Source: Escherichia coli
Lineage (GTDB): Bacteria; Pseudomonadota; Gammaproteobacteria; Enterobacterales; Enterobacteriaceae
Reading direction: 5' to 3' (one strand)
Assembly: GCF_046105845.1 (NCBI RefSeq)
Contig: NZ_CP151004.1
DNA length: 64,000 nucleotides
Part shown: positions 29,047 to 31,922 of the stretch, one piece after another
Numbering within the stretch: position 1 is the first letter of the stretch
How the letters are laid out: the number at the start of each line of letters is the position of its first letter
Made by a program: the position numbers and the translations under genes
The notes under the pieces: generated by a model
The model's input: only the letters and a program-made list of their open reading frames with translations
What the model was told of the DNA's origin: nothing
The model's database searches: none

Positions 29047-29502
29047 ATGCAAGAAGGGCAAAACCGTAAAACATCGTCCCTGAGTATTCTCGCCATCGCT
29101 GGGGTGGAACCATATCAGGAGAAGCCGGGCGAAGAGTATATGAATGAAGCCCAGCTGGCGCACTTCCGTCGTATTCTGGAAGCATGGCGTAATCAACTCA
29201 GGGATGAAGTCGATCGCACCGTTACACATATGCAGGATGAAGCAGCCAACTTCCCGGACCCGGTAGACCGTGCAGCCCAGGAAGAAGAGTTCAGCCTCGA
29301 ACTGCGTAACCGCGATCGCGAGCGTAAGCTGATCAAAAAGATCGAGAAGACGCTGAAAAAAGTGGAAGACGAAGATTTCGGCTACTGCGAGTCCTGCGGT
29401 GTTGAAATTGGTATTCGCCGTCTGGAAGCGCGCCCGACAGCCGATCTGTGCATCGACTGCAAAACGCTGGCTGAAATTCGCGAAAAACAAATGGCTGGCT
29501 AA
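29047..29502 (+). CDS. dksA: RNA polymerase-binding transcription factor DksA
   Basis: ORF 29029-29502; start taken at [28 protein letters not shown] (151 aa); C4 zinc finger CESCGVEI...CIDCK. Confidence 0.95.
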
Positions 29503-29568: not shown

Positions 29569-30465
29569 ATGACAGACACACACTATATTGGCCGCTTTGC
29601 CCCCTCTCCTTCCGGCGAGCTTCATTTTGGCTCTCTGATTGCCGCGCTTGGCAGCTATTTACAGGCTCGCGCCCGGCAAGGTCGCTGGCTGGTACGCATT
29701 GAAGATATCGACCCGCCTCGTGAAGTTCCCGGTGCCGCAGAGACTATCCTGCGCCAGCTGGAACATTACGGTCTGCACTGGGACGGCGACGTTCTCTGGC
29801 AATCGCAACGTCACGATGCCTATCGCGAAGCACTCGCCTGGTTACATGAGCAAGGACTAAGTTATTACTGCACCTGCACGCGCGCGCGTATTCAAAGCAT
29901 TGGCGGTATTTACGACGGTCATTGCCGGGAATTACATCATGGACCAGACAACGCCGCAGTACGTATCCGCCAGCAGCATCCGGTCACCCAGTTTACTGAC
30001 CTGCTGCGAGGCATTATTCACGCCGACGAAAAACTGGCACGGGAAGATTTTATTATTCATCGCCGTGATGGTTTGTTTGCCTATAACCTGGCGGTGGTGG
30101 TGGATGATCACTTCCAGGGCGTGAGCGAAATTGTCCGCGGGGCAGATTTGATCGAACCGACAGTGCGGCAAATCTCGCTGTACCAGCTTTTTGGCTGGAA
30201 AGTGCCAGATTACATCCATTTACCGCTGGCGCTTAATCCACAAGGCGCTAAACTTTCCAAGCAGAATCATGCGCCTGCGTTGCCGAAAGGCGATCCGCGC
30301 CCAGTGTTAATCGCGGCACTTCATTTTCTGGGTCAGCAGGTAGAAACACACTGGCAGGATTTCAGCGTCGAGCAAATCCTTCAGTCAGCCGTCAAAAACT
30401 GGCGGCTCACCGCAGTGCCTGAGTCGGCAATTGTAAATTCAACATTCTCAAATGCGTCATGCTGA
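29569..30465 (+). CDS. gluQ: Glutamyl-Q tRNA(Asp) synthetase
   Basis: [23 protein letters not shown]... (298 aa) with class-I HIGH-like motif; longest ORF starts at 29539, inside the upstream terminator hairpin, so the downstream ATG is preferred. Confidence 0.85.
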
Positions 30466-30524
30466 GCTATGATTAGCCGCTATTTTTTTGTCCTGAATGA
30501 TGTTTGACACTACCGAGGTGTACT

Positions 30525-31922
30525 ATTTTTACCCGAGTCGCTAATTTTTGCCGCAAGGTGCTAAGCCGCGAGGAAAGCGAGGCTGAACAGGCAGTCGCCC
30601 GTCCACAGGTGACGGTGATCCCGCGTGAGCAGCATGCTATTTCCCGCAAAGATATCAGTGAAAATGCCCTGAAGGTAATGTACAGGCTCAATAAAGCGGG
30701 ATACGAAGCCTGGCTGGTTGGCGGCGGCGTGCGCGACCTGTTACTTGGCAAAAAGCCGAAAGATTTTGACGTAACCACTAACGCCACGCCTGAACAGGTA
30801 CGTAAACTGTTCCGTAACTGCCGCCTGGTGGGTCGCCGTTTCCGTCTGGCTCATGTTATGTTTGGCCCGGAGATTATCGAAGTTGCGACCTTCCGTGGAC
30901 ATCACGAAGGTAACGTCAGCGACCGCACGACCTCCCAACGCGGGCAAAACGGTATGTTGCTGCGCGACAACATTTTCGGCTCCATCGAAGAAGACGCCCA
31001 GCGCCGCGATTTCACTATCAACAGCCTGTATTACAGCGTGGCAGATTTTACCGTCCGTGATTACGTTGGCGGTATGAAGGATCTGAAGGACGGCGTTATC
31101 CGTCTGATTGGTAACCCGGAAACGCGCTACCGTGAAGATCCGGTACGGATGCTGCGCGCGGTACGTTTTGCCGCCAAATTGGGTATGCGCATCAGCCCGG
31201 AAACCGCAGAACCGATCCCTCGCCTCGCTACCCTGCTGAACGATATCCCACCGGCACGCCTGTTTGAAGAATCGCTTAAACTGCTACAAGCGGGCTACGG
31301 TTACGAAACCTATAAGCTGCTGTGTGAATATCATCTGTTCCAGCCGCTGTTCCCGACCATTACCCGCTACTTCACGGAAAATGGCGACAGCCCGATGGAG
31401 CGGATCATTGAACAGGTGCTGAAGAATACCGATACGCGTATCCATAACGATATGCGCGTGAACCCGGCGTTCCTGTTTGCCGCCATGTTCTGGTACCCAC
31501 TGCTGGAGACGGCACAGAAGATCGCCCAGGAAAGCGGCCTGACCTATCACGACGCTTTCGCGCTGGCGATGAACGACGTGCTGGACGAAGCCTGCCGTTC
31601 ACTGGCGATCCCGAAACGTCTGACCACGCTAACCCGCGATATCTGGCAGTTGCAGTTGCGTATGTCCCGACGTCAGGGTAAACGCGCCTGGAAACTGCTG
31701 GAGCATCCTAAGTTCCGTGCGGCTTATGACTTGTTGGCCTTGCGAGCTGAAGTTGAACGTAACGCTGAACTGCAACGTCTGGTGAAATGGTGGGGTGAGT
31801 TTCAGGTTTCCGCGCCACCAGATCAAAAAGGGATGCTCAACGAGCTGGATGAAGAGCCGTCACCGCGTCGCCGTACTCGTCGTCCACGCAAACGCGCACC
31901 GCGTCGTGAGGGTACCGCATGA
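30525..31922 (+). CDS. pcnB: Poly(A) polymerase I
   Basis: ORF 30504-31922 (TTG-initiated in track); pcnB is known to initiate at AUU, placed here at ATT 30525-30527 giving [22 protein letters not shown]... (465 codons); nucleotidyltransferase motif [10 protein letters not shown]. Confidence 0.85.

Follow-up and report, generated by a model that had tools for sequence, protein, structure and literature searches.

Our analysis supports translation of pcnB, the gene for poly(A) polymerase I (PAP I), from the AUU codon at 30525-30527 (+ strand; positions are those of the window, the whole 64-kb stretch of Escherichia coli DNA that was analysed) and not from the TTG that opens its frame. We put at about 95% the probability that initiation takes place at this codon, selected by the Shine-Dalgarno (SD) sequence GAGGUG, and that so weak a codon, presumably discriminated against by IF3, keeps PAP I scarce. 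The position of the start rests on sequence, annotation, and comparative evidence. An AUU start of pcnB is already known, having been shown experimentally in 2002, and is part of the standard annotation. An earlier note on this DNA had proposed the same start from the letters of the sequence; what it observed is confirmed, except for an inaccurate remark on the absence of in-frame ATG and GTG codons, and its interpretation is supported as correct.

Reading Frame and Gene Identity

In the open reading frame (ORF) list of the window, the + strand between 28165 and 32398 carries sfsA, dksA, gluQRS, pcnB, and folK, and the order dksA-gluQRS-pcnB-folK is the conserved genomic context of PcnB; gluQRS-type genes (PF00749) are found upstream of pcnB in distant gammaproteobacterial loci too. 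The reading-frame scan places an in-frame TGA, which closes the pcnB frame upstream, at 30498..30500. The frame is then opened, as the earlier note had reported, by a TTG (30504..30506), which yields a mechanical ORF of 472 aa. Seven codons further on comes the in-frame ATT at 30525..30527, from which 465 codons are read, again as in that note, and the stop codon TGA (31920-31922) brings the gene to 31922. The N-terminus suggested for this product, with Ile or Met as first residue, agrees with our translation. The note's remark that the 5' part of the pcnB frame is free of in-frame ATG and GTG codons did not hold: GTG occurs at 30558, 30609, and 30615 (codons 12, 29, and 31) and ATG at 30678 (codon 52).

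RefSeq annotates the pcnB coding sequence (CDS; product poly(A) polymerase I) at 30525..31922 on the + strand (2226-3623 in L001), a CDS of 1398 nt with this ATT as its first codon, and a K-12-like record has a pcnB CDS of the same 1398 nt at 157729-159126 with the same ATT start. The NCBIfam PcnB equivalog NF008634 matches the protein with 997.1 bits (cutoff 702), residues 1-464 being placed on profile positions 1-468, and TIGR01942 does so with 523 bits (cutoff 305.65). Comparison with PDB 3AQM gave zero mismatches across residues 28-442 (E = 7e-285); the constructs behind the E. coli PAP I structures (PDB 3AQK-3AQN, residues 28/29-442) are without residues 1-27 and hold no information on the N-terminus. 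In the same region, the mechanical ORFs of dksA (from GTG 29029) and gluQRS (from ATG 29539) exceed the RefSeq genes (29047-29502 and 29569-30465, respectively), an ordinary difference between an ORF and a gene.

Previous Evidence and Proposed Mechanism

That E. coli pcnB initiates at AUU, as the earlier note had stated, agrees with RefSeq, with the citing literature, and with our independent comparative analysis. According to PMC2939334, translation of pcnB from the non-canonical AUU was demonstrated by Binns and Masters (2002), who are likewise credited with the proof in PMC3561954, PMC9764084, PMC4447247, PMC5499595, and bioRxiv 10.1101/063800. Four papers present infC and pcnB as the pair of E. 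coli genes whose initiation at AUU is confirmed (bioRxiv 10.1101/063800; PMC4447247; PMC5499595; PMC9764084), and on phylogenetic grounds an AUU start has been suggested for the PAP I homologues of many Proteobacteria as well (PMC3561954). Our literature search returned no start-site ribosome profiling or N-terminomics data for pcnB: the profiling papers that it returned do not name the gene, a paper in which pcnB occurs with these terms has it among its references only, and the N-terminomics paper PMC13245402 is without pcnB.

The protein itself polyadenylates RNAs for decay and controls the copy number of ColE1-type plasmids (PMC3561954). It is present at some 30-50 molecules per cell, and in excess it is toxic and kills the cell (PMC3561954), which is why its scarcity matters. 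The further proposal of the earlier note, that the AUU codon keeps PAP I low, finds support in the literature: initiation at AUU limits PAP I synthesis (Binns and Masters 2002, as cited in PMC2939334 and PMC3561954). As to how, the SD GAGGUG, four nucleotides upstream, would position the ribosome on the AUU, a codon expected to pair imperfectly with initiator tRNA and against which IF3 would discriminate during proofreading of the 30S initiation complex. Discrimination by IF3 against AUU is a general statement in the introduction of PMC5499595, and we apply it to pcnB from general knowledge of IF3; the papers examined contained no statement on IF3 that is specific to pcnB. Imperfect pairing and IF3 discrimination would cause few initiation complexes to mature, leaving PAP I scarce, and output would be expected to rise if IF3 became limiting.

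Ribosome-Binding Signals

Taken alone the ATT triplet proves nothing, since the chance of an in-frame ATT within the first eight codons after the opening of the frame is about 0.11 (ATT accounts for 7/465 codons of pcnB); its significance derives from an SD at the right spacing, from conservation across species, and from its position where the coding signature begins. The SD, GAGGTG (30515..30520, + strand), lies 4 nt upstream of the ATT and pairs with the 3' end of 16S rRNA at -9.7 kcal/mol, a value equalled at only 0.6% of 3000 random window positions. At the competing codons the corresponding values are +0.4 kcal/mol for TTG 30504, +1.4 for GTG 30558, and +0.7 for GTG 30609, with a weak -2.9 at ATG 30678; upstream of GTG 30615 an AGGTGA pairs at -6.8 kcal/mol, at a spacing of only 2 nt. 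This SD-like AGGTGA lies inside the CDS (30607-30617 region), right before the in-frame GTG of codon 31, and SD-like pause sites in pcnB have been described (PMC3561954). The wording "poor ribosome-binding site", used of pcnB in PMC3561954 and PMC9764084, fits badly with an SD that is strong by sequence. In many species a weak hairpin, ACACU/GGUGU (-3 to -4.7 kcal/mol), masks part of the SD, namely its 3' half; being absent in Kluyvera, Trabulsiella, and Pluralibacter, it is not claimed here as a conserved element.

Conservation within Enterobacteriaceae and E. coli

We compared the locus in 80 species of Enterobacteriaceae, with one genome each (L003-L082). In every one of the 80 species ATT lines up with 30525, and positions -10..-5 read GAGGTG in 80/80 with a fixed spacing. 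Within E. coli, the 501-nt stretch that was searched (features gluQRS and pcnB) matched 5424 of 5426 complete genomes at 95-99.8% identity, and the 31-mer spanning the SD, the spacer, the ATT, and codons 2-5 (30511-30541) is unchanged in 5420 of the 5424 genomes carrying the locus. An ATG is a single base change away from ATT, yet the ATT is kept in all 80 species; for folK, which served as control in the same species, ATG and GTG starts occur at roughly 35 to 29, whereas the ATT of pcnB is never replaced by ATG. Taken together, the aligned sequences indicate that the ATT start codon of pcnB is maintained by selection.

The upstream TTG is a poor competitor by the same comparison. Translation from TTG 30504 would give a protein of 472 residues (MTLPRCTIF...), and the codon has in its favor that no other canonical start comes earlier in the open frame and that a mechanical ORF finder reports it; moreover, TTG or ATG stands at this position in 28 of the 80 species (TTG in 26, ATG in 2), and database proteins with such extensions exist, for example in Pantoea (P0008) and Aeromonas (P0033). 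Nevertheless, the other 52 species have a non-start triplet there, no SD pairing is seen upstream of it, and both RefSeq and the literature put the start at the ATT. In 43/80 species there is no canonical in-frame start at all between the upstream stop and the ATT, and in 5/80 the frame is closed by a stop as near as 4-6 codons before the ATT. Between the TTG position and the SD, the leader alignment contains deletions of 1 nt, an insertion of 1 nt, and insertions of 3 nt, and given these indels the stretch is not under frame constraint. Furthermore, the "RC" of the extended proteins is merely the AGGTG of the SD read through, as the DNA of distant loci makes visible. We thus consider a start at the TTG very improbable.

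Downstream of the ATT the picture is that of a coding sequence. Codons 13-28 contain no in-frame stop in any of the 80 species, as against stops in 79/80 and 48/80 in the other two frames, and their entropy is concentrated in the third position (1.28, vs. 0.59 in the first and 0.69 in the second). Combined with the indels of the leader, this signature implies that translation begins at or upstream of about codon 13 but not upstream of the SD region. Overall, the coding signature starts at the AUU and not before it, with indels and variable stops upstream and a stop-free, biased frame downstream.

Two observations at the margins of the gene may be added. In Salmonella enterica subsp. diarizonae and arizonae (L022 and L023), an ATG without an SD of its own occurs 21 nt upstream of the ATT (gtATGacactaccgaggtg...ATT); gene callers will prefer this ATG, adding seven spurious residues. 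At the other end, the ORF list and RefSeq have the folK start overlapping the pcnB stop in ATGA (31919..31922, + strand), and a 4-nt overlap, ATGA or GTGA, recurs in the majority of the 72 loci with an identified folK. The persistence of this arrangement in most species suggests that the two genes may be translationally coupled.

Distant Gammaproteobacterial Relatives

Because codons 1-12 are nearly invariant at all three positions, the Enterobacteriaceae data alone cannot separate constraint on the peptide from constraint on the nucleotides, a matter that more distant loci resolve. A protein homologue search with PcnB residues 1-127 returned only fragments of at most 223 aa, enough for the study of N-termini and not a taxon survey, and the DNA of eight distant loci was examined, seven of which have a counterpart (56-66% identical over the first 127 residues). 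In the distant set, the called ORFs open at various codons further upstream, with the reading ...RC[TPHI]-I-F-x-R-[VI]-A-x-F-C-R-K. At the Ile that corresponds to codon 1, L083 (Aeromonas veronii), L084, L085, L086, L087, and L090 have ATT and L088 has ATC; in each case this codon is preceded at 4-7 nt by an SD (GAGGTG, AAGGAG, AGGAGA, or GGAG). In the Vibrio-like locus L089, neither a recognisable N-terminal peptide nor an evident SD with ATT was seen. L088 has the arrangement GAGGTG-tatt-ATC, with an ATG that overlaps the SD four codons upstream of the ATC.

The peptide that follows the Ile codon is kept in the distant loci with its codons swapped synonymously (GCT/GCA/GCC, CGA/CGT, AAT/AAC, CGC/CGT, and AAG/AAA), and the sequence after the Ile codon is therefore translated. 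This bears directly on a start at the in-frame GTG of codon 12 (30558..30560, + strand), which would turn the conserved block before it into an untranslated regulatory leader. Such a start is attractive insofar as the GTG is invariant in the 78 in-register Enterobacteriaceae loci and conservation in codons 1-12 extends to the nucleotides themselves, as it might in a non-coding element. However, GTG is retained only in L083 and L084 among the distant loci, CTG, GTA, ACC, ATA, or GTT replacing it in five of the seven (L085-L088 and L090) while the upstream peptide is synonymously preserved, which removes GTG 30558 as a conserved start. In addition, it has no SD, and the NF008634 profile covers residues upstream of codon 12. 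Like the TTG, we regard this codon as highly unlikely to be the start of pcnB, and initiation at the AUU remains the preferred reading.

An Invariant Block from the SD to Codon 12

Beyond the start codon itself, the nucleotides of codons 2-12 (30528..30560, + strand) are nearly invariant in Enterobacteriaceae, synonymous sites included. Their mean synonymous codon entropy is 0.18, vs. 0.94 gene-wide, the lowest window of pcnB; for codons 1-9 it is 0.04, against a gene median of 0.96 in windows of the same size. Seven of the 15 degenerate codons of pcnB that never vary fall in codons 1-12. No such effect is seen at the 5' end of folK, the control from the same loci (synonymous entropy 1.14 vs. 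1.17), and in the distant loci the synonymous constraint on codons 1-12 relaxes. Given that the whole 46-nt block from the SD to codon 12 (30515-30560) is almost invariant in the 80 species, synonymous sites included, and that folK shows no such effect, the block could conceivably serve a further cis-acting role, hitherto undescribed, in addition to providing the AUU start, a proposal that we advance as doubtful rather than likely. The block may reflect a fine tuning of the weak initiation site, or be a candidate binding site for a protein or small RNA. Stable RNA structure was rejected as the reason for the invariance, the folding of 30480-30600 and of 30505-30565 being no better than that of shuffles (z = +1.3 and +0.8, respectively). 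Of the elements described here, the block is the only one not obviously present in the pcnB literature examined. If the proposal were true, the block might, for example, tune the rejection of the AUU by IF3 or bind a factor, and PAP I output would be set with growth rate.

Synonymous variation is also reduced, though less strongly, in a patch at codons 36-44 (30630-30656), where codons 41-43 (CGC AAA GAT) are identical throughout the 78 in-register loci. The patch falls where the internal sigma-S promoter pS1 (PMC2939334) should be, a candidate link only.

Promoters and Internal Starts

Upstream of the gene, a sigma-70-like element, TTCTCA-N17-TATGAT (30445..30473, + strand), overlaps the gluQRS stop codon (30463-30465); the scan of 30150-30750 gave no other promoter-like match. 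The element is conserved in 67/80 Enterobacteriaceae, in the distant L090 and, as TATTAT, in the Vibrio-like L089. The element is probably the known pcnB promoter pB of Binns and Masters, an identity that we infer. The TTG that opens the mechanical ORF is itself part of a perfect -35 hexamer, TTGACA (30504-30509), and (T/C)TGACAC is common at that position among the 80 species; the hexamer was rejected as a promoter, the scan having found no acceptable -10 at 16-18 nt.

Liu and Parkinson (1989) proposed a promoter and an ATG downstream of the AUU, as related in PMC2939334, and the start that they originally put forward corresponds to the in-frame ATG of codon 52 (30678..30680, + strand). Besides the AUU-initiated protein, a shorter PAP I might be made from an internal start (ATG 30678, or GTG 30609/30615) on transcripts from pS1, a sigma-S promoter inside pcnB for which activity is reported in vitro and, in vivo, under special conditions (PMC2939334). 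Two bands are seen in Western blots with anti-PAP I, and the possibility is raised in that same paper, although its authors regard the idea as unproven. The individual codons speak both ways: GTG 30615 has its SD-like AGGTGA, but at a spacing of no more than 2 nt; codon 29 is ATG in most species, but Val (GTG) in Escherichia and Ile in Atlantibacter; and most of the 80 species have Leu at codon 52. As a group, the candidate codons are poorly conserved. We judge a shorter isoform improbable, if less so than either of the rival starts considered above, and even with such an isoform the AUU would stay the main start.

Comparison with Known Systems and Significance

The pcnB of the window is that of another E. 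coli strain (best match SK1144) and presents no substantive difference from E. coli K-12 pcnB (b0143; Binns and Masters 2002, Mol Microbiol 44:1287), with which it shares gene, codon, SD, 465-residue product, and the proposed PAP I-limiting role. Identity of the window to E. coli genomes is 98-99.8%, and the CDS 157729-159126 of the K-12-like record corresponds to 30525-31922. The closest parallel elsewhere in the genome is infC, the gene for IF3, which with its AUU/AUC start is the other confirmed non-canonical start of E. coli (bioRxiv 10.1101/063800; PMC5499595). In infC, too, expression is held down by a weak codon, which different species have conserved and for which AUC is accepted as a variant, just as the pcnB counterpart in L088 has ATC. 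Yet infC is autoregulated, its own product discriminating against its start, and in this pcnB differs; dependence on IF3 would make pcnB expression follow IF3 levels without a feedback loop. AUU or AUA starts have also been described in Enterococcus faecalis ebpA (PMC4447247) and in Staphylococcus aureus cvfC1, ccpN, and citZ (PMC13009471), where a rare start is combined with a good or extended SD and output is about ten-fold below that of AUG. These are unrelated genes in unrelated organisms, analogues of pcnB in mechanism and not homologues.

For annotation, the consequence is that ORF finders limited to ATG, GTG, and TTG misplace the pcnB start: to the upstream TTG in Escherichia, to the upstream ATG in Salmonella diarizonae and arizonae, and to a downstream GTG or ATG elsewhere, with the result that many PcnB N-termini in protein databases are wrong. 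For the biology of the gene, our findings leave current understanding unchanged: just two starts of E. coli are confirmed as non-canonical, and the AUU of pcnB is one of them and a textbook case of a protein level set by the start codon.
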